Translations under genes and position numbers: made by a program
From: Candidatus Heimdallarchaeum aukensis
GTDB lineage: Archaea > Asgardarchaeota > Heimdallarchaeia > Heimdallarchaeales > Heimdallarchaeaceae
Assembly (NCBI GenBank): GCA_021513695.1
Contig: CP084166.1
Span: forward strand, 1,440,001-1,504,000
Direction of reading: 5' to 3'
Length of the DNA: 64,000 bases
Part shown: positions 5,914 to 56,731 of the stretch, piece after piece
How the letters are laid out: each line of letters begins with the position of its first letter
Numbering within the stretch: position 1 is the first letter of the stretch
Notes under the pieces: model-generated
Seen by the model: only the letters and a program-made list of their open reading frames with translations
Database searches by the model: none
Told to the model about the DNA's origin: nothing

Positions 5914-6300
5914 GGTAGTGTCTAGTTTTTATACCACCTCCTAGGCAAAAAGGAATTAAGGGGTGGGTGTCCAAGGCTCTGGTGGGGGCGAATGAAGTTA
6001 TAATAAAGCATAAAGAGAGTAAGAAAACCAGAGAGATGATCGGAGCCATAAATAGCTCGAATAGAACAGGTACAGTGGAGAACAGAGTGAAACCAACGAT
6101 AGGTCTTAAGACTGGCATTAAAGCGCTCAACATATGACCGTATACCACCACTAACAACAAGATGATTAAGCCCGAGACGAGATAGATAGGATAGAATAGC
6201 AGGAACCAGCATCAGTGACGACGATACGTGGTTTTGAGGCCCAACAGCGGAACCAATAACGAAAAGTTAGTAAGCACTCGAGGACACTACTACCTTTACT
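5914..6300 (-). mobile_element. truncated, diverged copy of the IS6-like element found at 54324..55089 (one IR plus the 3' part of the transposase only)
   Basis: The IR ggtagtgtctagttttt at 5914..5930 is identical to the left IR of the complete copy. Nucleotide similarity then continues to about 6285-6300. It encodes ...IVVTDAG... and ...YNFIRPHQSLGHPPLNSFLPRRWYKN in different frames. No second IR is present. Confidence 0.8.
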
Positions 6301-8873
6301 GTTTACTCTAATGGAACATATGTTATTTCAGTCTCTGATCTTACTGATTTTGGTAAATATCAGTTAGTAGTATTATTAACCTTAGATGGTTACGTTGATC
6401 AAAGCTTCACTCTGAACATTTTACTTTTAGAGAGAGAAACAACATTGAGTTCAACTACAGGAACTAGCCTACAGATTTACACAATTGATACCTTGAATCT
6501 ATTTTTAGAATACAAAGACAAAAATACTGATACAGCAATAGAAGCAGATGATAATCAAATTTCTTTTGCTCAAGGAACAGGAAATGAAACTTTAACCCTC
6601 AGTTTTTACTTTGAATCAATAAGTTACAATGGTTACACAGTCACTCTTCATTCTTTCACTTTTGACCCTAATGAAGCTACTGCAGCAGGATATGTATTTG
6701 TTTTCAACATTACACTTTCAAAATTTGGATATTCTAACAATTCAATTATAATCTATTTAAGAGTTGATATCAATCCTTCTGATATTCAGTGCCTAGAAGA
6801 TAGTATACTTATTGATTCTTCACAACAAGCATCTTTTACAATTTTCTATATTGATACAGTTTCTAATACAAACATTACTGGTGCGTTCATTAGCGTGTTA
6901 CAGTTAAATGGTTCTTCTTCTGATATCGATTCACTTTTAGCTTATAGTTCTACACCCTTTTACATTGTCTATATTGATCCTGATAATGTAAATGCTGTAG
7001 ATAAGACCTTTATGTTTAATGTTACACTCTATAAGGCGGGATATGAGAATCAATCTTACATTATTTACCTAACCGTAGTGTATAATCCCACCACAATTAG
7101 TGCAGAAGAAACAGAAAGTACCATTTTTGCGGATCAAGTCGCAGAATTTACACTGTATTATATAAATGATAAAACAGATACATATATAGAAGATGCTTCA
7201 GTAACCATTGAAATTGTCAATGGTTCAATGTATATAGAAGAATATTATGCTACAGGAACAAGTCCCTATATGTTTATATTAACCCTTATGATTAAAATTC
7301 CTCAGATTTAACTTTTGAAATAAGAATCACAATATCAAAAGGAGGATATAAAGAACAATCTATAGTACTTTATTTGCATGTAAAGATTCATCCTACAAGG
7401 ATATTCTCCTCTAGTAGCACTCAAACAATTTATGCAGATGAAACAGCAGATTTCACTGTTTATTACTGGGATACTTACAATGTTTTAATTGAAGAAGCAA
7501 ACCATACAGTAGAACTTACTCTTGGTGATTCAATAGATGTTGAAGGAGTAAGTTTGTTACATAACCAAGTTCTAGATGCTTACATTATCTCTTTTGATTT
7601 TAATGACTTTACAGTAACAAATGAAACATTTATTTTTAACATTACAATGTGGAAACCAGGATTCGAAAATCAATCAATAATACTAACGGTAAAAATCCAT
7701 GATTTCATTAGATATGAATTAAGCATAAACATCGATAGCGATACTATTCAACTTCTAAGTACAGTAACATTTACATTAATTCTAAAAGAAGCTATTATAC
7801 AGTTACTTGCTGATGATAATACAAAATTAGCTTATTCTCCTATTGGAGAAAATGTAACTTTAACTTTATTCCTTCTCGATAATGCTAATAATATCATTGA
7901 AACATCTACATTTAATATTACAATAAGTGATATTCAAAATGGTAATTATATTGGTCAATTCAAATATAGAGTTGAAAATTGGAAAGCTAAAAGCCTTAAA
8001 ATAGAGTGCACATATCTTCCTAAACAATCAAATATTGTTTCAACAACGAACTTCGATCTAACTTTTGAAATAAAGTTTCCATATTTCAATGATCTTTTCT
8101 ATGAATATCTATCTTACATGATTGCAGCAATTTCAATAATTGCCGTAGCAGCAATAACCTTGGCTGTTTATTTTGGAGTAGTTCGTCCCAAAAAACAAAG
8201 GCAACAAGCAAAAAGAAAACAATATTGTGATACTGTGTCAAATATACTTCAAAGCGTCACATCCATAAAGAAAGTTCTTGTTGTTCATAAAGATACTAGC
8301 TCTCCTGTTTATGAATTAGACTTAGGTTCAGATATGAGAGTAAGTTCAGCGCTTGTGACTGGATTTTTGCAAGCTGTATCCACAATGGCAAAAGAGATTA
8401 CAGGAAAAGATAAAGATGTTGTCAAAAAGTTAGATTACGGAGATTTAATTGTTACTTCTGCAGGCACAAAGAACTATATTACTTACATTTTCTCAGATAG
8501 AGAACTTTCAGAAGATATAACAAATGGTCTAAAAGAGTTCGTAAAATACTTTGAGAAAAGATTTTCTCATGTTGCAGAAAACTGGATTGGTTCCTTAGAT
8601 GAATTTAAAAAAGCAGAAAAGGCAATTTTGCGTAATTTAACAGAGCACTTATATATTTGGACATTATATCCTATAACTACTAATCCAACAATGGAAAAAG
8701 AAGTAAAGAAACTAGGTCCAATGAGCCAAAAAATAATTAAATTCGTTAAAGATACAAAAGAAGTAACAATAGGAATAATACTTCAATATTTCAACAGGTG
8801 GCCAAAAGAAGAAACTATTTCACTTGTCTTTGCTTTAGTTGAAGATCATTACCTTCTTACAAAGAGAATATAA
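6274..8873 (+). pseudogene. decayed large repeat-rich surface protein gene (5'-truncated, frameshifted, nonsense codon) with a C-terminal TM helix and cytoplasmic tail
   Basis: The reading frame opens inside the IS remnant at 6274. At least 5 tandem ~100-aa repeats each end in a F-N-(I/V)-T...K-x-G-(Y/F)-x-N-(Q/N)-S...I-Y-L motif. The repeat pattern jumps frame at about 7268 (a tata duplication). It is then interrupted by an in-frame TAA at 7293..7295 (LYVYINPYD*NSSDLTFEIRITISKGGYKEQS). The TM helix lies at about 8109..8183. Confidence 0.75.
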
Positions 8874-17545: not shown

Positions 17546-17998
17546 ATGCACAAGGGGTTTATAACTAAAGAATTAACCAATGATGAAATAAGTCACAAAA
17601 AAATATTCATTAAAGTAGAAGACAGAATTTTGTTTCCTCATGGTATTTTTTTTATTGACTACCTAGACAATTCCTTTGGAGTTTATTTATCCAATAGAGG
17701 ATTTTTAGAAGGATTAGAATCATGGTTTGAAGAATTTCCTTCTTTAAAGAAGGGAGACATTGTTATTATCGCTAAACATAGCTCGGGCTTTTCTTTGAAC
17801 ACAACCTCACCAGTTGTTCAGTCTCAGATTTCTTTGATAATGGAAATGCAAAGAGTACAAATGTTGACTGAAGAGGATATTCTATGTCCAAACTGTTACT
17901 ACTCCTTAGAAAAAGAAAAACTCCCTGAAGATTCTCCTCACTTATTAAAATTAAAATGTGGGCGTTGTGGATTTATTCTTATAAAAACCAAAATTTAA
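17546..17998 (+). CDS. hypothetical protein: N-terminal beta-rich (B3/AbrB-like?) domain plus C-terminal zinc ribbon
   Basis: 150 aa and a paralogue of 18063..18530. The C-terminus has CPNC...17 aa...CGRCG. Confidence 0.6.
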   Translation: MHKGFITKELTNDEISHKKIFIKVEDRILFPHGIFFIDYLDNSFGVYLSNRGFLEGLESWFEEFPSLKKGDIVIIAKHSSGFSLNTTSPVVQSQISLIMEMQRVQMLTEEDILCPNCYYSLEKEKLPEDSPHLLKLKCGRCGFILIKTKI

Positions 17999-18062: not shown

Positions 18063-18530
18063 ATGCATGTTGGATTTATCATCCGAGAATTAACCGAGGA
18101 AGAGATTAACCATAAGTGCTTATATGTTTTTGAAAAAGACAGAATACTTTTTCCTAATACAGGAGTTTTATTTTTTGTTGAATCCTATGAAGAGACATAT
18201 GGAGTAAGAATAGATCAAGATGGATTTCTTAGAGGATTAGAAACATGGTTTACAAAATATCCTCATAATCCTGGCGATACGATAATCATCGCAAAAACTT
18301 CTGAAAGTTTTTCTTTAAGTAGTTCTTCTGAGCTCATTCAACAAATTATTGGAGAATCATATGAAAAAGTTCGTGTTGATGAAATGGATGAGAAATCAGA
18401 AGCATGTCCAAATTGTCAATATCAACTAGAAATGGCAGCTAAAAAAGAAGAACGAATCATTTTCAAGTGTGCACGTTGTGGATTTACAATGGTTAGAAAA
18501 ATAAAAGATAATGAAAATGAAGAAGATTAA
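18063..18530 (+). CDS. hypothetical protein, tandem paralogue of 17546..17998
   Basis: 155 aa, alignable along its whole length with its neighbour (MHxGFIxxELTxxEIxHK, DRILFP, GFLxGLExWF, GDxxIIAK, FSL, CPNC, CxRCGF). Confidence 0.6.
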   Translation: MHVGFIIRELTEEEINHKCLYVFEKDRILFPNTGVLFFVESYEETYGVRIDQDGFLRGLETWFTKYPHNPGDTIIIAKTSESFSLSSSSELIQQIIGESYEKVRVDEMDEKSEACPNCQYQLEMAAKKEERIIFKCARCGFTMVRKIKDNENEED

Positions 18531-18540
18531 GTTTTTTATT

Positions 18541-18819
18541 TTAGGTGTAAAAAAACAGTGCACTCCCGATAACTCCTAAAATAAGAATTAAGAAAACTGA
18601 AGTAATAAAGACATTCTTTGCTTTTTCTATTTTCAAGCATCTAGAACATAATAAAAGTTTAACATTTTGCGGCTTTTGAGGAGAAAACATTGCTGAAATA
18701 GCATTTGTTTTCCAATATTCATTAGTGCATGAAGTGCAAATAGGCTTATAACATCTATTACATCTTGTCTCGGCATTGACCTCAGTGTGAATATAACATT
18801 TTTCTTCCATCATTATCAA
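18541..18819 (-). CDS. small membrane-anchored zinc-finger (B-box-like) protein
   Basis: 92 aa. It has CYIHTEVNAETRCNRCYKPICTSC plus a second CSRC, and a C-terminal hydrophobic helix (FITSVFLILILGVIGSALFF). Confidence 0.45.
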   Translation of the reverse strand: MIMMEEKCYIHTEVNAETRCNRCYKPICTSCTNEYWKTNAISAMFSPQKPQNVKLLLCSRCLKIEKAKNVFITSVFLILILGVIGSALFFYT

Positions 18820-18999: not shown

Positions 19000-19074
19000 T
19001 GGAGCCCCGGAGGGGAATTGAACCCCTGACCTGCGGATTACGAATCCGACGCTTTACCACTTAGCCACCGAGGC
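19000..19074 (-). tRNA. tRNA-Thr(CGU)
   Basis: The reverse complement folds as a cloverleaf. The acceptor stem is GCCTCGG/CCGGGGC with one G-U pair, and the D arm is GCT..AGC. The anticodon loop is TTCGTAA and the T arm AGGGG-TTCAATT-CCCCT. The discriminator is T and CCA is encoded. Confidence 0.9.
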
Positions 19075-19238: not shown

Positions 19239-19865
19239 ATGATGGAGGAAATGATACACAATATTTGGATTGCTAAGGATACTGGTGAATGTCTATATCA
19301 TAGAAGATTTAATGATGACATCAACATAGATGAGAATTTAATAACCAGCTTTCTCTCTGCAATTGAAATTTTTGCTCAAAATGTCGATTCTGGCTGTGAA
19401 CAGCTTGAAACAAAAAGGTACAAATTCATCTATGCACAAACAGATAACACTGTCACAGTTGCTTGTATTGACAAAAATGATGATGATACCTATATCAAGA
19501 AAGAAGTAGAAGCAATTCAAAATGAGTTTAAATCCCGTTTCAGTAAAATGTTAGAAAATTGGAATGGAAGAGTAGAGTTATTTAGTACAATGGATGAATT
19601 CGTCGATAAAAGATTATCTTCCTTTAATTCCATTCTTGGTTCGTTTAAGAATAAAAAACTGGAGCTGAATGAGATGATTATTAAGCAAAAACCTAAATTA
19701 AAACTCAGTCCTCAGCAAGAGAAAGTCATATCACTGATCAGATATAAAGGGACAGCCACGTTACAGGACATTTGTAAATGGATGAAATTAACTGAGCCAG
19801 ATGCAGAAATAGCTGCAAAGAGCCTTTTACACAATAATATTATACGTGAGGTTACAGGCGCTTAA
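19239..19865 (+). CDS. longin/roadblock-like domain protein with C-terminal winged helix
   Basis: 208 aa. The N-terminal ~110 aa show an alternating beta-beta-alpha-beta-beta-beta-alpha pattern (IWIAKDTGECLYHRRF...LITSFLSAIEIFAQNV...YKFIYAQTDNTVTVACID...EVEAIQNEFKSRF). An ENWNG motif follows. The C-terminus has a wHTH-like stretch (EKVISLIRYKGTATLQDICKWMKLTEPDAEIAAKSLLHNNII). Confidence 0.5.
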   Translation: MMEEMIHNIWIAKDTGECLYHRRFNDDINIDENLITSFLSAIEIFAQNVDSGCEQLETKRYKFIYAQTDNTVTVACIDKNDDDTYIKKEVEAIQNEFKSRFSKMLENWNGRVELFSTMDEFVDKRLSSFNSILGSFKNKKLELNEMIIKQKPKLKLSPQQEKVISLIRYKGTATLQDICKWMKLTEPDAEIAAKSLLHNNIIREVTGA

Positions 19866-20129
19866 CTATTTCTTTTTCTCTTTTATTTCCTTCTTTGGTG
19901 AAGAGTTACTCATCCACTCAGGTTCAGTTTGTTTTCCAAATTCTTTATTGAATTCTTGAACTAAAACTCTAGCTTGTTTAGCGGTATTTACTGTCATTAT
20001 TTGTTTTTTATAAACATCTATTCGTTTATTGCAATAGGGACATTGCTTTGTTTTCTGTCCTGTTTTGCAATAAGAGAATTTTCCACAATATCTGTTTGAA
20101 CAACGTACTATTGTATACACACTTTTCAC
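19866..20129 (-). CDS. DUF1922-like zinc-ribbon protein
   Basis: I infer a GTG start at 20129 overlapping the upstream TGA (GTGA). It has a Cys4 ribbon (RCSNRYCGKF...QCPYCNKRI). The longer ORF 19866..20204 would overlap the YjbQ gene. Confidence 0.55.
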   Translation of the reverse strand: MKSVYTIVRCSNRYCGKFSYCKTGQKTKQCPYCNKRIDVYKKQIMTVNTAKQARVLVQEFNKEFGKQTEPEWMSNSSPKKEIKEKKK

Positions 20130-20539
20130 TGTCCAATGATTGTAACTGCGACTCTTCGATGTCTGCTTCTCACATCTAGACAAATAAAAACTGGTTGTTG
20201 CCATGTTCCTAACTGTAACCGTGAATTATGAATAGATAAAGATAAACTTGGACCAATTAAACTTGCTCTTAAGTGTGAATGAGCGTTTGAATCAATCATG
20301 TCGTGTTTATATCCCGCACCTTTTGGGACTAGTTTCTCTAATATCTGTTTAAAGTCACTTAGTACTCTTGATTCATACTCTATCGTAGTTAAAGCTCCCG
20401 TAGAACCTATTACATTTGCAGACAAAATACCATTCTTTATTTTTGATTTAGAAACAAGATCTTCAAACATTGAAGTTAGATCTACAATAGTTATTTCTCC
20501 TTTTGTATCAAATTCTAGTATTTCAGAATAGACATTCAT
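20126..20539 (-). CDS. YjbQ/UPF0047 family protein (secondary thiamine-phosphate synthase family)
   Basis: 137 aa with ITIVDLT, GSTGALTTIEYE, NAHSHLRASLIGPSLSL and LGTWQ motifs typical of the family. Confidence 0.8.
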   Translation of the reverse strand: MNVYSEILEFDTKGEITIVDLTSMFEDLVSKSKIKNGILSANVIGSTGALTTIEYESRVLSDFKQILEKLVPKGAGYKHDMIDSNAHSHLRASLIGPSLSLSIHNSRLQLGTWQQPVFICLDVRSRHRRVAVTIIGQ

Positions 20540-20660
20540 TTTCTCTTCAAATATTGTATAGCATTATCTTTTTTAATTCTTGGTTTTAATTAAAAGATTG
20601 ATTTTTTTCAAAAATCGTAAAAATGTTTATTATCTTTCATACGTAAATAAATTGGATAAT

Positions 20661-22931
20661 ATGGTAATACAAGAAGAGAGTAAGGACATCATAGAAGACT
20701 CACCTTTTAACCGCCTTGTTCTTGCAGAAATGGAGAGAGAACGACTTTACTCTACATTTGCTTTAGTTGACGAATTTAATGAAATTGCGTCTTCATGGTT
20801 AGAATTTTCAGATTTTTGTGCAAAATCATTATTTAATTTAACAAATTTATCATTTCTTCTCTATGAGCGGTATCTTGATGAATTTAATAGAGATAAGCAA
20901 CAAATAGAGATAAATTTTGAACGTAAAAGCTTCATTATTAAGAGAATAGAAAATCTGCAACAATTCCAAATGGAAGCAGCTATTTTAATGATTCTCTATG
21001 CAGATATTGTTAACACAGGCATTTTTGAGTCTAAACCTGCAGAAAATTTTTGTTATTTAAACATTGAAGGATATAAGGTTCTTGAGAAAATCTCTTCTAC
21101 ATATTTCGATTCTACTCATCCCAGGGCCTCATCAATTGAAGATATTATGGTAAAGTTATTTACAATAAGTCAAAAAGTCCAAATTGTGAAGATACTAAAT
21201 GATTCGCCAATTAAAAAAGCAAAAGAACCATCTTTTATTCAAGAACAACTTGAGTTGGAAAGATTATTAGCAAGTTTTGAGTTTGATTTTATTGCTAAGT
21301 TAATAGAAGAACTCGGAAAAAGATGGTGGTGGTATGACCCAATTGCAATACATTTTAGCTATGAAAGAGCAATGAAACACTTAGAAAAATCTCTTTCCCT
21401 TTTAGAACATAGTGAGGAAAATGTTCTACAAATTAAAGAAGAAATTAAAAATAAGATCTCAACAATAGATAAAATTTGGAGAAATAAAGCACTAATTGAT
21501 CACTTTTATAGAATCACATTAGAAGCAGCTAAAAAAGACAACTTTGTTGCAAGCATCGAATACCTAAACTTAATTTTAGGATTAATCGATGAAATCATTG
21601 AATATTTTCAAAACAATAATGAACATTTAGAAAGCGAAGAACAATTTTATGAAGAAATAGAAGAACGTAAAAACGATTTAAAAGTTTTTCATATTGTTGT
21701 CAGACTAGCTCTTTCTGTAGCTGAAATCATAAACAAACAAACCTCAATAGATAAAGCATTGTTAGAAAAAAAACTTACAGAAATAGAAAAAATATGCAAA
21801 GATTCTTCATTGTTTTCCAATATAAATTACTTCTCTGAAATTATTTATGTTTATCAAGGCTTTGTTCAAACAGCTAGAATTGGTATACTGAAGAAACAAA
21901 AAACAGAGAAAATCTTGAATAATGCAATAGCACAATTTGAATACTATATAGTCAAACTTGAGAATAGTTTAACAAAAATTGCTAATGATTTTTATAAGAA
22001 AGTCCATAAAGGGACGCTAAAAAGTACTGATTTTAAAAATTACTTAAAAAAGATTGAAGAGTTAAAGTACATCAGTTTCTTTTTACCTAACTTAGAACAA
22101 AAACTCAATCTTACACGAGAAATAGAGTCAATGGAATGTTATATTAAATCAATAGCTGCATTAAAACAGTCACAATCCCAAGAGTTGTCTGAAATTGAAA
22201 AACTCATCTATTATTCGAAAGCACACTATTTCTCAAATAAAGCTTTAGATTTGTCTCAAAGTAAGGAAAAAGCCATAATTCCTGACAATTGGCTTGAAGA
22301 GCAGTTCCTTAAAACTTTCACTGAAGGGAGAGAAGTCGAGTTAAAACTTTTTGAATTATCACGTCAATTTCTTTTTCTAAATAAAGTAATAGATGAAATT
22401 GCTTATTGCTTTGACATTTCAGAAAAAAAGAAAGAAAAAATTGAAAATTATGAGACAGTTCTTCAATTTCACTTTAGAAAATTTGAACTCTTTGAAATCA
22501 TTAACAAACAGATAGAAGAAAATTGTTTAGAATCCCTGAAATACAGAGAAATATCAAATGATATTGTAATTGTAGATAAAAACGTCAATTGGCAAATTAT
22601 TGAAGCTAAAAAAATATTGGCATCTTCAGCAGACAAATTAATCAAAGCACTTAAAAAATGCGCCCTTGGTTATGCAGCAGATAGAAGTAAAGACAACTAT
22701 AAAGCAGCTGTTTTATTTAATGAAGGTTATAAGCTGGTTCAGGAAGCATGTAATATTTTAGACCCACTAACTACATATGACAAACAATTTGCTGATTTGG
22801 CAAAAACAACTTACGAATTCAATTTGTTTCTAAAGGAACTTGAACGTTTGGAACTTGAGAAGAAAAAAATAAAAGAATTTCCTCTAGAAAAAGTGTTGTC
22901 TCTAGTTAAGAAAATAATTTTCTTTTCGTAA
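20661..22931 (+). CDS. large all-alpha hypothetical protein (about 756 aa)
   Basis: ORF 20580..22931, trimmed to the first ATG at 20661. It is K/E/L/I-rich with helical-repeat-like composition. I recognise no catalytic motif. Confidence 0.55.
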   Translation: MVIQEESKDIIEDSPFNRLVLAEMERERLYSTFALVDEFNEIASSWLEFSDFCAKSLFNLTNLSFLLYERYLDEFNRDKQQIEINFERKSFIIKRIENLQQFQMEAAILMILYADIVNTGIFESKPAENFCYLNIEGYKVLEKISSTYFDSTHPRASSIEDIMVKLFTISQKVQIVKILNDSPIKKAKEPSFIQEQLELERLLASFEFDFIAKLIEELGKRWWWYDPIAIHFSYERAMKHLEKSLSLLEHSEENVLQIKEEIKNKISTIDKIWRNKALIDHFYRITLEAAKKDNFVASIEYLNLILGLIDEIIEYFQNNNEHLESEEQFYEEIEERKNDLKVFHIVVRLALSVAEIINKQTSIDKALLEKKLTEIEKICKDSSLFSNINYFSEIIYVYQGFVQTARIGILKKQKTEKILNNAIAQFEYYIVKLENSLTKIANDFYKKVHKGTLKSTDFKNYLKKIEELKYISFFLPNLEQKLNLTREIESMECYIKSIAALKQSQSQELSEIEKLIYYSKAHYFSNKALDLSQSKEKAIIPDNWLEEQFLKTFTEGREVELKLFELSRQFLFLNKVIDEIAYCFDISEKKKEKIENYETVLQFHFRKFELFEIINKQIEENCLESLKYREISNDIVIVDKNVNWQIIEAKKILASSADKLIKALKKCALGYAADRSKDNYKAAVLFNEGYKLVQEACNILDPLTTYDKQFADLAKTTYEFNLFLKELERLELEKKKIKEFPLEKVLSLVKKIIFFS

Positions 22932-28635: not shown

Positions 28636-29250
28636 TTGTCTTGGAAAACTTGGTTAAAAAGTAAACCCAAACATATTAAACTTGGATTTTATGGGGAAGT
28701 AAATGCCGGGAAGACAACGTTAGCAAATGTTATGGGGATGGATTGGGCAGGACAAGAAGTGGGAAAAGTTTCTGAAATCCCTCACGAAACTAGAGAAATT
28801 GCAAAACTAGAAAAAGTTGATTTTAATGTGGATGGGACAAAAATAGATTTAACTTTAATAGATATGCCAGGTATAGCTACAACAGTTGACCCAAAATCAT
28901 TTGTTAATTATGGATTAAGTGCTGGAGAAGCTATGCAAAGAGCTAAAGAAGCAACAAGAGGAATAGTAGAAGCTATCAAGTATTTAGAGCAAGTTGATGT
29001 TGCACTTGTAGTATTAGATTCTACAAAAACACCATTTGATCAAGTTAATTTTACTATTCTTGGGAACTTAGAACATCAGAAGAAGCCATTTATTATTGTC
29101 CCAAACAAAATAGATTGCCCTGAATCAGATGTAAAAACAGTGCAAGAAGCCTTTGGTGATTATGAAGTTGTACCTATCTCTGCCTTGAAGAAGGAAGGTA
29201 TTGACAAACTCTATGATAGTATTGCAAAATTAGCTAAAAAGGTGAAATAA
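28636..29250 (+). CDS. small P-loop GTPase
   Basis: G1 is GEVNAGKT, G3 DMPG, G4 PNKID and G5 SALK. 204 aa with a TTG start. Confidence 0.8.
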   Translation: MSWKTWLKSKPKHIKLGFYGEVNAGKTTLANVMGMDWAGQEVGKVSEIPHETREIAKLEKVDFNVDGTKIDLTLIDMPGIATTVDPKSFVNYGLSAGEAMQRAKEATRGIVEAIKYLEQVDVALVVLDSTKTPFDQVNFTILGNLEHQKKPFIIVPNKIDCPESDVKTVQEAFGDYEVVPISALKKEGIDKLYDSIAKLAKKVK

Positions 29251-54323: not shown

Positions 54324-55089
54324 GGTAGTGTCTAGTTTTTATACCACCTCCTAGGTAAAAAGGAACTAAGGGGAGGATGTCCCAAGCTCTGATGAGGACG
54401 AACGAAATTATAATGGAGCATAAAGAGAGTAAGAAAACCAGAAAGATGAGTAGAGCCATAGACGGCACGGATAGGACAAGTGCAGTGGAGAATAGAATGA
54501 AACCAACGATAACTCTTAAGAGTAGCATTAAAACGTTCAATATAGGAGCGTAAACCACCTTTGATAACGGAGATTTTGATACCTAGACGAAGTAAGACAG
54601 GATACCATACTCCTGCATCTGTAACGACAATACGGGGCTTAAAACCCCAACATTTGAACCAATAACGGAAAGTTAGTAAACATTCAAGATTACTCCGTCC
54701 TTTAGTAATACTAAAACCCAGTAAAGTTTTATTGTAAGGAAGGATCTAATGCGAACCACAGATATATTGAGCCTTGAGAGGTCTTAATCTCTGTTTCATC
54801 TACTACTATAATCTCTGGTATTCCCCCTCTCTCTGCTACAACTCTATGTAAACTTTCCCTAAAGAGCCTGAACTTCTTTACTAATACCATAATGTTTGGT
54901 GTGTTAAACCATTCTTCCATGCAACGGTCCTCAAACCATTCTTTGAACCAATATATTCATAAATAGCTTTTATTATTATCTTTTTGGGGACTCTGCATCT
55001 CTTAAAAAGAGTAGATAGTTTTTGAATGTTCATATCTTACTATTAGAGTCCCCACAAATATTTTTGTCGGAAAAAAACTAGACACTACC
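54324..55089 (-). mobile_element. IS6-family-like insertion sequence, 766 bp, with perfect 17-bp IRs, a target-site duplication and an inactivated transposase
   Basis: The left IR ggtagtgtctagttttt (54324..54340) matches the reverse complement of 55073..55089. It is flanked by direct repeats taaacccct at 54315..54323 and 55090..55098. The minus strand encodes an HTH region (MNIQKLS...GLTHQTLWY), DDE blocks (VVDETEIK...YLWFALD, IVVTDAGVWY, IERFNATLK) and YNFVRPHQSLG. These are spread over three frames, so there are at least two frameshifts. Confidence 0.85.
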
Positions 55090-55156: not shown

Positions 55157-56731
55157 ATGACCCCTGATTCTACTAATAACACATTTAGTGTTCCTATAAA
55201 TAATAAAAAAATAGAAAATGTTCCTTCTACAATTATTGAATTTATTGAATCTAATCGTTCTTTATTTGATTCTTATCAATTTCCTGTTATGATTACTGAT
55301 GCTGACCGACGTATATTGTATATCAACCCTATTTTTAAAGAAGTTACTGGTTATAGTGACACTGATCTTTTAAACAATTTTTGGAACGATCTTGCTCCTC
55401 CTGCGTCTTTAGGTAAACTGCTTAAATACCATCATATTCGGAAGAAATTTCCGGATAAAGCTCCTAGTTCTTATGAAACTAGCTTTTCTTTAAAAAATGG
55501 TCAGGAGAAAGAGTTTCTCCTTACTATCACTCCATTATTTAATAATTATCTTTTTTTTCTTACTTTTACTGATGTTACTCCAAAGAAATTGGCTAAAATT
55601 GAACTTTCTCGCTCTTATGAACAATATTATACACTTGTCAACACTTCTCCCGATGGTATTTTACAATTAGATAAAGACTTAAACATTATAATGGCAAATA
55701 ATGTTGCTAAACGCTTTATTAAACATTTCTATGGAGAAACTGAAATTATTGGCAAAAGTGTTTTTTGTTTAATACCTAATGATCAGCATAAAATAATCGA
55801 CAATGCTGTAAAACATGCAATTAAGGAGGGGTACTATCGTAATTTAGAAATATCTTTTCCAAATAAAAAAACTGGAACAACTTCTTATTTTGAGATTAAC
55901 ACTTCTGTAGTTTATGATCATGAAAAACCACTTTTTTTCATTGCTATAGTGCGTAATATTAGTGATCGAAAACAAATGGAAAAAAAACTTAATGAATATA
56001 CTACTAAACTTGAACATTTAGTTCAAGAGAAAGCTAGTAAATTAATGGAACAAGAACGATCTGCAATGCTTGGCAGGTTAGCTGCATCTATTAGTCATAA
56101 TATTAACAACCCTTTGCAATATGTTATTGGTAACGCAGAACTCATTTTAAAACTATTAAAAGAGCCTAACTTGGAAATTTCCTTGATTCAAAGTTTAGCT
56201 CAAACACTAATTTCTGGTTGTTATCGTATAGTAGAAGTTTCTGATAAACTTCGTCGAGCTTCTAGAAAAAGTGATGTAAGCATTTTTGATATCGCTATTC
56301 CCATTGAAGTTGCTATTTCTGTTACTAAAGGTAAATGGATGAAAAAGTGTTCTCAGATTAAAGTTCGCTATTTAACTGATGAAACTATTAAAATTAAAGG
56401 AGTAGAATCTGATATTGCACATGTTTTCATGAATCTCATCATTAATGCAGTTCAAGCAATTAAAGACAAAGGCGAGATAGAGATACGTATTTCAAAACTT
56501 TCTTCTCGTAAAGTTTTCATTGAAGTTCATGATAACGGTAGTGGCATTCCCCCTGATATTGCTGATAAAATAGGTAAAGAAACTGTTACAACAAAAAATC
56601 CAGAAGTTGGTACGGGGTTAGGTTTATTATGGGTTTATGACACGATACATCAGCATTATGGAACAATTGACTTTGAAACCAAACTGGGAAAAGGAACTAC
56701 TTTTAGGATTGCTCTTCCTATCGCAAATTAG
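55157..56731 (+). CDS. sensor histidine kinase with two PAS domains
   Basis: Two PAS-like segments (VMITDADRRILYINPIFKEVTGYS and SPDGILQLDKDLNIIMANN). The H-box is ASISHNINNPLQ and the HATPase_c N, G1 and G2 boxes are present (MNLIINAVQA, HDNGSGIP, GTGLGL). Confidence 0.85.
   Translation: MTPDSTNNTFSVPINNKKIENVPSTIIEFIESNRSLFDSYQFPVMITDADRRILYINPIFKEVTGYSDTDLLNNFWNDLAPPASLGKLLKYHHIRKKFPDKAPSSYETSFSLKNGQEKEFLLTITPLFNNYLFFLTFTDVTPKKLAKIELSRSYEQYYTLVNTSPDGILQLDKDLNIIMANNVAKRFIKHFYGETEIIGKSVFCLIPNDQHKIIDNAVKHAIKEGYYRNLEISFPNKKTGTTSYFEINTSVVYDHEKPLFFIAIVRNISDRKQMEKKLNEYTTKLEHLVQEKASKLMEQERSAMLGRLAASISHNINNPLQYVIGNAELILKLLKEPNLEISLIQSLAQTLISGCYRIVEVSDKLRRASRKSDVSIFDIAIPIEVAISVTKGKWMKKCSQIKVRYLTDETIKIKGVESDIAHVFMNLIINAVQAIKDKGEIEIRISKLSSRKVFIEVHDNGSGIPPDIADKIGKETVTTKNPEVGTGLGLLWVYDTIHQHYGTIDFETKLGKGTTFRIALPIAN

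Follow-up and report, generated by a model that had tools for sequence, protein, structure and literature searches.

A compact longin and winged-helix protein of Heimdallarchaeaceae with a receptor-tail paralog: a candidate adaptor for small GTPases

A conserved gene for a longin and winged-helix protein

The window analyzed here, a 64,000-nucleotide stretch of the Candidatus Heimdallarchaeum aukensis genome (contig CP084166.1, positions 1,440,001 to 1,504,000), carries at 19239..19865 a gene whose product joins an N-terminal longin domain to a C-terminal winged helix and, at 7374..8873, the remnant of a surface-protein gene whose cytoplasmic tail is homologous to that product. An initial annotation of the window had read the former as a longin/roadblock-like domain fused to a winged helix-turn-helix (wHTH). 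The open reading frame (ORF) and all of the motifs that it quoted are present exactly as claimed, in the ORF list and in our alignment. Coordinates are collected in Table 1.

The gene is real and conserved. A database search returned 63 orthologs of 55–96% identity; the full-length ones are 201–221 amino acids (aa) long, a few are fragments, and wherever the source is named it is Candidatus Heimdallarchaeaceae or a Heimdallarchaeota metagenome-assembled genome. All 63 are labeled “hypothetical protein” and lack precomputed Pfam domains. The gene is apparently single-copy in Heimdallarchaeaceae; the G+C content of the window is 31.5%. Translation probably starts at the third ATG, at 19251 (M5), which would give a protein of 204 aa, because the N termini of the orthologs begin M(I/L)HN and align to M5. 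The protein is soluble, with no SNARE motif, membrane anchor, or hydrophobic segment in its sequence.

The N-terminal domain has the longin fold. In a full-length AlphaFold2 model, built on an alignment of close orthologs (mean predicted local distance difference test score (pLDDT) of 75), strands at residues 6–12 and 18–24 are followed by a helix at 32–51, a short strand at 56–57, strands at 61–67 and 71–78, and helices at 84–106 and 113–130. This order matches the longin fold, and no helix precedes the first strand. Roadblock/LC7 domains (Robl, MglB, and LAMTOR) need such a helix, so that of the “longin/roadblock” assignment made initially only the longin part survives. Foldseek likewise finds significant similarity to solved longin domains, with sigma-adaptins matched at an E-value of 8e-5; the SNARE longins and sigma-adaptins are the best structural matches of this domain, scoring above NPRL2/3.

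Direct sequence searches of Pfam, NCBIfam, and PDB with the window protein returned only sub-threshold matches, namely Sybindin (E 0.039, 14.5 bits versus a cut-off of 25), Fuz_longin_1 (E 0.15, 12.7 versus 26.1 bits), the AP sigma subunits (weak PDB profile matches to AP-2 and AP-4 sigma, E 0.2–0.4), PH1519, and MreA. These were hints only, and the further sequence evidence for the longin domain comes through relatives. Some homologs linked to it by profile search exceed curated cut-offs, among them P0145 for Clat_adaptor_s (28.4 versus 22.5) and P0092 for Fuz_longin_1 (30.1 versus 26.1). Among 144 relatives whose domain content was examined, drawn from 845 representatives of clusters at 50% identity, Fuz_longin_1 matches 23 (best 2e-8), Clat_adaptor_s 6, Longin 5, Intu_longin_1 3, and Sybindin 2.

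An alignment of 48 orthologs shows striking conservation of the N-terminal half. The invariant residues include H7, W10, T15-G16-E17-C18, C53, C76, W108, and G110; H21 is nearly invariant. The core of helix α1 is all but frozen, at exposed positions as well as buried ones, as would be expected if the helix contacted one constant protein partner; this face is a candidate partner-binding face, and by analogy with other longins its partner may be a GTPase. The consensus drawn from 144 distant relatives retains the W-x-G of the ENWNG motif, and at least 90% of the two-domain family have G110. Where strand 2 begins there is a G-x-C motif, and its cysteine, C18, is likewise kept in at least 90% of the broader family of two-domain proteins. 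C18, C53, and C76, with H7 and H21, might serve in metal binding, redox chemistry, or a catalytic pocket.

The C-terminal domain is a winged helix. Residues 131–208, modeled alone with a pLDDT of 84 (mean of 65 over the first 10 residues), form a strand at 141–143, a short helix at 145–149/150, helices at 158–170, 175–182, and 186–198, and a strand at 202–204. They have a three-helix bundle with a helix-turn-helix (HTH), flanking strands, and three-dimensional similarity to solved winged helices, and the model, the structural matches, and the Pfam matches of relatives all agree with the wHTH-like segment seen initially. The N-terminal strand completes the winged-helix sheet in the model. There is no β-hairpin wing after helix 3, because the chain ends, at residue 208, four residues beyond its last strand, the single strand 202–204. 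Helix 3, which lies at the recognition position, is EPDAEIAAKSLLH (including EPDAEIAAK); it is acidic and alanine-rich, with E186, D188, and A189 near-invariant, and its mean charge over 64 family members is −1.5, compared with +2.6 for helix 1. Judged by sequence, such a helix does not appear to be the canonical basic or polar recognition helix of MarR, TrmB, Lrp, and ArsR proteins.

Pfam matches of this domain are mixed. The window protein matches MarR weakly (E 0.096, 13 bits versus a cut-off of 24.6). The C-terminal parts of 28 two-domain relatives match TrmB in 7 cases (16–20 bits, cut-off 25.6), POLR3C_WHD in 5, and HTH_47 in 4, with further matches to HTH_9, HTH_69, MarR_2, PCI, and DUF742; P0145 is the sole relative to pass the HTH_24 cut-off (24.6 versus 21.9). 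In structure, this domain comes closest to Npr2/NPRL2. Taken together, we regard the identification of the two domains as very likely correct.

A second copy on a surface protein and the wider longin family

The initial annotation had also proposed that the module recurs, in the same order, at 8184..8873. The 499-aa ORF that contains this segment consists of an extracellular part, one transmembrane helix, the basic stretch RPKKQRQQAKRK directly after it, and a cytoplasmic tail with a longin and a winged-helix-like region. The tail and the focal protein are homologous. BLASTP aligns them with an E-value of 2e-9 over 182 residues at 23% identity; phmmer, run across the ORFs of the window, finds the module in these two only; a profile of 143 family N-domains matches the tail longin with an E-value of 9.5e-18 over profile positions 2–124; and hhalign gives a probability of 93% and an E-value of 3e-7 over 169 collinear columns (query residues 8–183). 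The aligned span extends from the longin across ENW-G and the linker into the winged helix, of which it covers the first two helices (residues 158–183), and for these parts the recurrence stands. The last ~25 residues of the tail, where the third helix would lie, are unaligned by hhalign, and a winged-helix-only profile and Pfam both miss a winged helix in the tail; one is nevertheless plausible there, as suggested by collinearity and residue pattern.

Further matches concern this region or the module. The tail longin has a sub-threshold Pfam match to Robl_LC7, and a word-indexed homolog search with the tail returned one partial, near-identical protein. Residues 248–372 of the ORF, running through the transmembrane helix and halfway into the longin, match DUF7198 below threshold (E 0.0015, 18.4 bits versus a cut-off of 27); DUF7198 may be an existing, uncharacterized Pfam family with the same start of a transmembrane helix plus a longin. 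A candidate third copy at 55157..56731 (+) was rejected as spurious, as the longin-profile match (E 5e-4) covers only 46 residues. The product of that ORF, judged by sequence motifs, is a PAS-like, histidine-kinase-like sensor.

The gene that bears the tail is broken. Its ortholog in a related genome, at locus L002, encodes 1760 aa, lies at the same position before HAD hydrolase and GcvH genes, and bears the same tail at 66% identity. When 956 residues of this ortholog were used as a tblastn query, residues 423–956 matched 7266–8870 in frame 3 at 49% identity, and residues 278–565 and 416–510 matched 6190–7080 and 6940–7227 in frame 1. The last 679 residues of the ortholog are thus split over two frames of the window, 6190–7227 (frame 1) and 7266–8870 (frame 3), and 7374..8873 reads as a truncated, frameshifted remnant, for which “decayed surface protein” is a fair description. 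The frameshift itself may be an assembly error. One copy of a repeat resembling an insertion sequence (IS) abuts the 5′ break of the gene (5914..6298), and the ORF that overlaps it contains a motif that we take to resemble one of DDE transposases.

The longin domain of this family is a mobile module found in several architectures. An exhaustive profile search returned the 845 cluster representatives at E ≤1e-3, most of them matching profile positions 1 to ~125 only. Many of the proteins are stand-alone longins of ~120–170 aa. Among the 144 examined, ~19 proteins of 190–245 aa have a longin followed by a winged helix, and ~15 have a longin followed by a small GTPase, whose P-loop (GxxGVGKT) starts at residues 122–180, mostly ~133, with matches to Roc, Arf, Ras, and Gtr1_RagA (Roc 14, Arf 13, and Ras 12 in the proteins with a P-loop right after the longin). 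P0114, for example, has its longin at 1–118 and an Arf-like domain at 124–292. Other fusions are to a prenyltransferase-like toroid, CN_hydrolase, TIR_2, and TRASH. Finally, five proteins of 495–1715 aa (P0193, P0194, P0197, P0201, and P0213) carry the longin as a receptor tail, in the order large N-terminal part, one transmembrane helix, PKK[RQ].K, longin, and a further C-terminal region. The small GTPase is the commonest recognizable fusion partner, and the link to small GTPases drawn in the initial annotation is strengthened by these fusions to Arf-, Ras-, and Roc-type G domains.

Within this very large Asgard longin family, the protein at 19239..19865 represents one orthologous group that extends across Heimdallarchaeia. 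In the distant two-domain clusters, the named members are also Heimdallarchaeota, including Kariarchaeaceae, and all are “hypothetical proteins” without a Pfam domain. The family is therefore unannotated, as had been supposed; its architecture has a precedent in NPRL2/NPRL3.

A candidate GTPase platform and its alternatives

Longin and roadblock domains are platforms for the switching of Rab, Arf, and Rag GTPases in eukaryotes. With a probability that we put at roughly one half, the protein at 19239..19865 is likewise a GTPase-regulatory platform or adaptor and not a reader of DNA. We favor this role because of what is known of longin platforms, the layout shared with NPRL2/NPRL3, the precedent of the actinobacterial conservon, the fusions of the longin family to small GTPases, the conserved α1 face, and a GTPase gene ~2–6 kb away at three of seven loci. 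The data themselves establish both folds, the homology between the copies, the domain fusions of the family, and the anchoring of the paralog in the membrane; pairing of longins, binding of a GTPase, and a role of the winged helix away from DNA are deductions. Mechanistically, the longin would pair with a second longin, provided by its own copy or by the paralogous receptor tail; pairing with the tail is speculative. The face with the conserved helix α1 would then be offered as a platform for a small GTPase. The winged helix would serve in protein binding or assembly, on the model of NPRL2/NPRL3 in GATOR1, or could instead act like MfpC, an HTH protein that works with a roadblock protein on the GTPase MfpB. 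Longins are known to pair through an edge strand, and a GTPase to bind a face to which each longin or roadblock domain contributes one helix (Levine et al. 2013, PMC3747258).

NPRL2 and NPRL3 (Npr2 and Npr3 in yeast) are subunits of GATOR1/SEACIT, the GTPase-activating protein (GAP) complex for the Rag/Gtr GTPases. In both, winged HTH repeats come after a longin at the N terminus (PMC3747258), which is the order of our protein as well; their winged helices are not known to read DNA. The clearest PDB matches among Foldseek alignments long enough for both domains are Npr2 (259 columns) and three GATOR1-complex chains (243–281 columns); Fuzzy also yields long alignments. The presence of a soluble copy and a paralogous copy in one genome may recall the NPRL2–NPRL3 pair. 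The systems differ in size (~204 aa here versus ~380–600 aa) and in composition, since our protein has one winged helix and no intermediary region, whereas NPRL2 and NPRL3 have two or more winged helices. Further, NPRL2 and NPRL3 assemble with DEPDC5, whereas the focal protein has no known DEPDC5-like partner. Thus, the protein resembles NPRL2/NPRL3 in layout, and its membership in that family is not demonstrable; the failed membership test leaves the resemblance in layout undiminished.

Several observations weigh against a GTPase platform of this type. The NPR2, NPR3, and Folliculin families of Pfam have no match in the window protein (E up to 1), and they are absent from the 25 most frequent Pfam families of the 144 relatives and from those of the 28 two-domain relatives. 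By sequence, the longin is closest to those of the Fuzzy/MON1, sigma-adaptin, and sybindin types. Longins with GAP activity, such as those of NPRL2, FLCN, and SMCR8, carry a catalytic arginine finger and, immediately ahead of strand 2, a GP motif (PMC12290439). With positions mapped by secondary structure, the GP motif is absent here: the loop is T15-G16-E17-C18, and the residue after G16 is E, V, L, I, T, or N in the family and never P. No arginine is conserved family-wide, so that there is no conserved arginine finger either. (The G-x-C site at C18 is the position of the GP motif of the GAP longins.) The winged-helix domain as a whole is basic, with a mean net charge of +3.5, and the winged helices of relatives match families of DNA-binding regulators (TrmB, HTH_24, and MarR_2). 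The full-length model is of moderate confidence and relies on close orthologs. The 64-kb window contains no gene for a Ras-like GTPase, and an operon link to a GTPase was rejected, the Arf/Gtr1_RagA-type GTPase being nearby in only three of seven loci and absent from the window. Finally, every partner named here for the focal protein is one that we infer. We consider it quite improbable that the system is a minimal, prokaryote-sized forerunner or analog of the NPRL2/NPRL3 pair, in which the soluble subunit and the receptor-tail paralog would form a heterodimer that switches an Arf-/Rag-like GTPase.

The second precedent comes from actinobacteria. Two proteins of the mycobacterial conservon act on the GTPase MfpB, the roadblock protein MfpD as its GAP (PMC9769811) and the DUF742 HTH protein MfpC as its guanine nucleotide exchange factor (PMC11343762). 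In conservons (Cvn/Mfp), roadblock-superfamily and HTH domains are likewise paired, act on one GTPase, and do so downstream of a membrane protein; where the conservon has a membrane sensor, the membrane component here would be the receptor-tail paralog. The analogy is not exact, because the parts of the conservon are separate proteins of one operon, whereas here they are fused, with no GTPase gene adjacent in the window, and because the conservon domain is a roadblock and ours has the longin fold. DUF742 itself is matched by the winged helix of one relative only, below threshold (E 7.7e-4). A different contrast is provided by SNARE-type longins (Sec22b, Ykt6, and VAMP7), sigma- and mu-adaptins, sedlin, and sybindin: the focal longin continues into a winged helix, and in place of the SNARE motif and membrane anchor of SNARE-type longins it has neither a SNARE motif nor a lipid anchor nor a transmembrane helix.

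Peptides and coat subunits are the ligands of SNARE longin domains and sigma-adaptins. The protein might, in the same way, be a longin scaffold that works independently of GTPases, binding the tails of surface proteins, winged-helix partners of the ESCRT or PCI type, or cargo peptides. The longin does find its best structural matches among these proteins and not among GTPase regulators, part of the family is fused to domains other than GTPases (the toroid, CN_hydrolase, TIR_2, and TRASH), and some of the winged-helix matches, PCI and POLR3C_WHD, are of a protein-binding type. Set against this are the predominance of the small GTPase among recognizable fusion partners, the lack in the soluble protein of a SNARE motif or membrane anchor, and the fact that even the longins of SRX and the adaptors operate beside Arf and SR-beta GTPases (PMC3747258). 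A scaffold of this kind is possible, if somewhat doubtful.

We consider it unlikely that the protein is a one-component transcription factor, in which the longin would sense a ligand or partner, the winged helix would bind DNA, and the membrane-anchored paralog would be a tethered regulator like ToxR or CadC. The conserved cysteines with H7 and the near-invariant H21 could make a sensory site in the longin, and the net basic charge of the winged-helix domain and of its helix 1 would suit DNA binding, as would the matches of relatives to TrmB, HTH_47, and MarR_2, the one passing match to HTH_24, and a weak PDB profile match to the Lrp-type regulator PH1519. Compared with MarR, TrmB, and Lrp regulators, however, the protein has an acidic helix 3 with near-invariant acidic residues, no hairpin wing, and no MarR-type dimerization helix pair, and a longin takes the place of their ligand-binding domain. 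Aligned upstream regions of five orthologous loci have no obvious conserved block except the tRNA-Thr gene, and a repeat scan of the window's own upstream region found only small, AT-rich palindromes indistinguishable from chance. The structural match that ranks best and is longest is to Npr2/NPRL2, which is not known to bind DNA, the relatives of the longin are wired to GTPases and not to DNA-binding outputs, and the module is also tethered behind a transmembrane helix, in the window tail and in the five receptor-tail relatives. These arguments against canonical DNA reading by the winged helix are not decisive. The initial annotation's idea of an adaptor from signal to transcription has nevertheless lost ground, as the acidic helix, the missing wing, the operator search, and the membrane tail all fail to point to DNA binding. 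Least probable by far is that the recurrence of the module means nothing, the second copy being a chance resemblance or the ORF not a gene. The second copy does lie in a decayed gene, its winged helix is not independently detectable, and the pairwise identity is low; but the conserved orthologs, the four independent and significant comparisons (BLASTP, phmmer, N-domain profile, and hhalign), and the retention of the tail in the intact ortholog at L002 rule this out for practical purposes.

How novel is the proposed GTPase platform? The Asgard expansion of longin and roadblock domains is a main argument for an archaeal origin of the machinery of membrane trafficking and nutrient signaling. That a well-defined longin and winged-helix protein exists in the lineage closest to eukaryotes will not surprise a specialist, and novelty is reduced further because the most novel-looking role, that of a transcription factor, is the less likely one. 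NPRL2-like longins are already known in Asgard archaea (PMC12290439). According to the main text of Liu et al. (bioRxiv 10.1101/2020.10.19.343400), Asgard longin and roadblock domains have undergone lineage-specific expansion and shuffling, with longins fused to Rag-type GTPases and signaling domains; our family shows the same shuffling as this expansion (asCOGs; compare also the Lokiarchaeal Roadblock-Longin protein 8yqg). The same main text, its asCOG tables aside, does not name a group of ~200-aa longin and winged-helix proteins or a receptor-tail form. What appears to be new here is the compact longin and winged-helix orthologous group with its receptor-tail paralogs, the shuffling of Asgard longins being already known.

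Whatever its role, the protein is a small (~204 aa) and easily expressed Heimdallarchaeaceae protein with the layout of NPRL2/NPRL3 and an almost frozen α1 face, and it belongs to a large longin family that is unannotated and mostly missed by current Pfam models. If it has a GTPase partner, it would be a tractable model of pre-eukaryotic longin platforms; should DNA be its target, it would count as the first transcription factor under the control of a longin. The receptor-tail form on giant surface proteins suggests how, in an Asgard cell, signals from outside could be passed on to a GTPase, and if it is a receptor-anchored platform, a direct route from receptor to longin to GTPase would predate eukaryotic machinery of the GATOR/Ragulator type.

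Neighboring genes and other features

We compared the neighborhood of the gene in the window with that at six other loci. The result is a loose, persistent synteny and not an operon. YjbQ recurs at five of the six other loci and DUF1922 at four, in variable order and orientation, together with a zinc-ribbon protein of ~150–155 aa and a DAGK_cat kinase. The DUF1922–YjbQ pair flips, being convergent with the focal gene in the window and at L002 and co-directional with it at L003 and L004. Seven of the genes run in one direction with short gaps at L003 but not in the window. There, the tRNA-Thr(CGT) gene fills most of the intergenic gap and separates the focal gene from its upstream syntenic neighbors.

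Table 1. Features of the window and of related loci (coordinates marked L001 to L006 refer to those loci)
Feature	Coordinates	Strand	Basis or remark
Coding sequence of soluble longin and winged-helix protein	19239..19865	+	ORF list; 208 aa from first ATG
Longin domain, residues 5-130	19251..19628	+	Order strand-strand-helix-strand-strand-strand-helix-helix
Helix α1 core ENLITSFLSAIEIFAQN, residues 32-48	19332..19382	+	Invariant or near-invariant at 17/17 positions, 48 orthologs
ENWNG motif, residues 106-110	19554..19568	+	Turn joining α2 (84-106) and α3 (113-130) in model
Lysine-rich, low-confidence linker, residues 131-139	19629..19655	+	pLDDT <50 at residues 131-133
Winged-helix domain, residues 140-208	19656..19862	+	Model and structural matches
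ORF, 499 aa, 3′ remnant of giant surface-protein gene	7374..8873	+	tblastn with 1760-aa L002 ortholog
Transmembrane helix, ORF residues 245-272	8106..8189	+	Kyte-Doolittle maximum 2.49 over 19 residues
Longin domain of tail, with ENWIG; paralog of 19251..19628	8265..8645	+	Profile, BLASTP, hhalign
Last 69 residues of tail, plausibly winged-helix-like	8664..8870	+	Collinearity only
Upstream fragment of decayed surface-protein gene, other frame	6190..7227	+	tblastn with L002 ortholog
IS-like repeat, two copies	5914..6298 and 54324..54704		78% identical over 386 bp
ORF overlapping IS-like repeat, contains YNFIRPHQSLG	5922..6212	-	Motif resembling that of DDE transposases
tRNA-Thr(CGT)	19000..19074	-	~165 bp upstream of focal gene; same place in L002
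DUF1922 (zinc ribbon)	19866..20204	-	Convergent with focal gene, stop codons abutting
YjbQ/UPF0047	20126..20539	-	ORF overlaps DUF1922 ORF by 79 bp
754-783 aa protein	window 20580..22931 (+); L003 9463..11727; L004 9425..11689; L005 2607..4892; L006 1172..3475 (-)		Nearby in five loci
Tandem duplicates, 150-155 aa, C-terminal CxxC...CxxC zinc ribbon	17546..17998, 18063..18530	+	ORFs; no family assignment
92-aa ORF	18541..18819	-	N-terminal Cys-rich B-box-like zinc finger, weak Pfam match
407-aa Arf/Gtr1_RagA-type GTPase	L001 14591..15814 (-); L003 4906..6129 (+); L004 3647..4870 (-)		Domain matches

The initial annotation had suggested looking for proximity to small GTPases, and the outcome differs between loci. 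A 407-aa GTPase, with a ~90-aa N-terminal extension and a ~180-aa C-terminal region, adjoins the DAGK_cat kinase and lies ~2–6 kb from the focal gene in three of the seven loci; it is absent from the 64-kb window, where the only P-loop GTPase is a 204-aa ORF at 28636..29250 whose L002 counterpart carries MMR_HSR1. The 754–783 aa neighbor, which keeps to within a few kb of the focal gene, has no match in Pfam, NCBIfam, or PDB by sequence and is only 21–41% identical between loci; motifs such as WW.D..I..HF are invariant, and the protein may be a functional partner of the focal one. A single-copy ortholog of the duplicated zinc-ribbon proteins is syntenic with the focal gene at L001, L003, and L004. 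The 92-aa ORF between these duplicates and the tRNA gene (18541..18819, minus strand) has a hydrophobic, transmembrane-like C-terminal segment.

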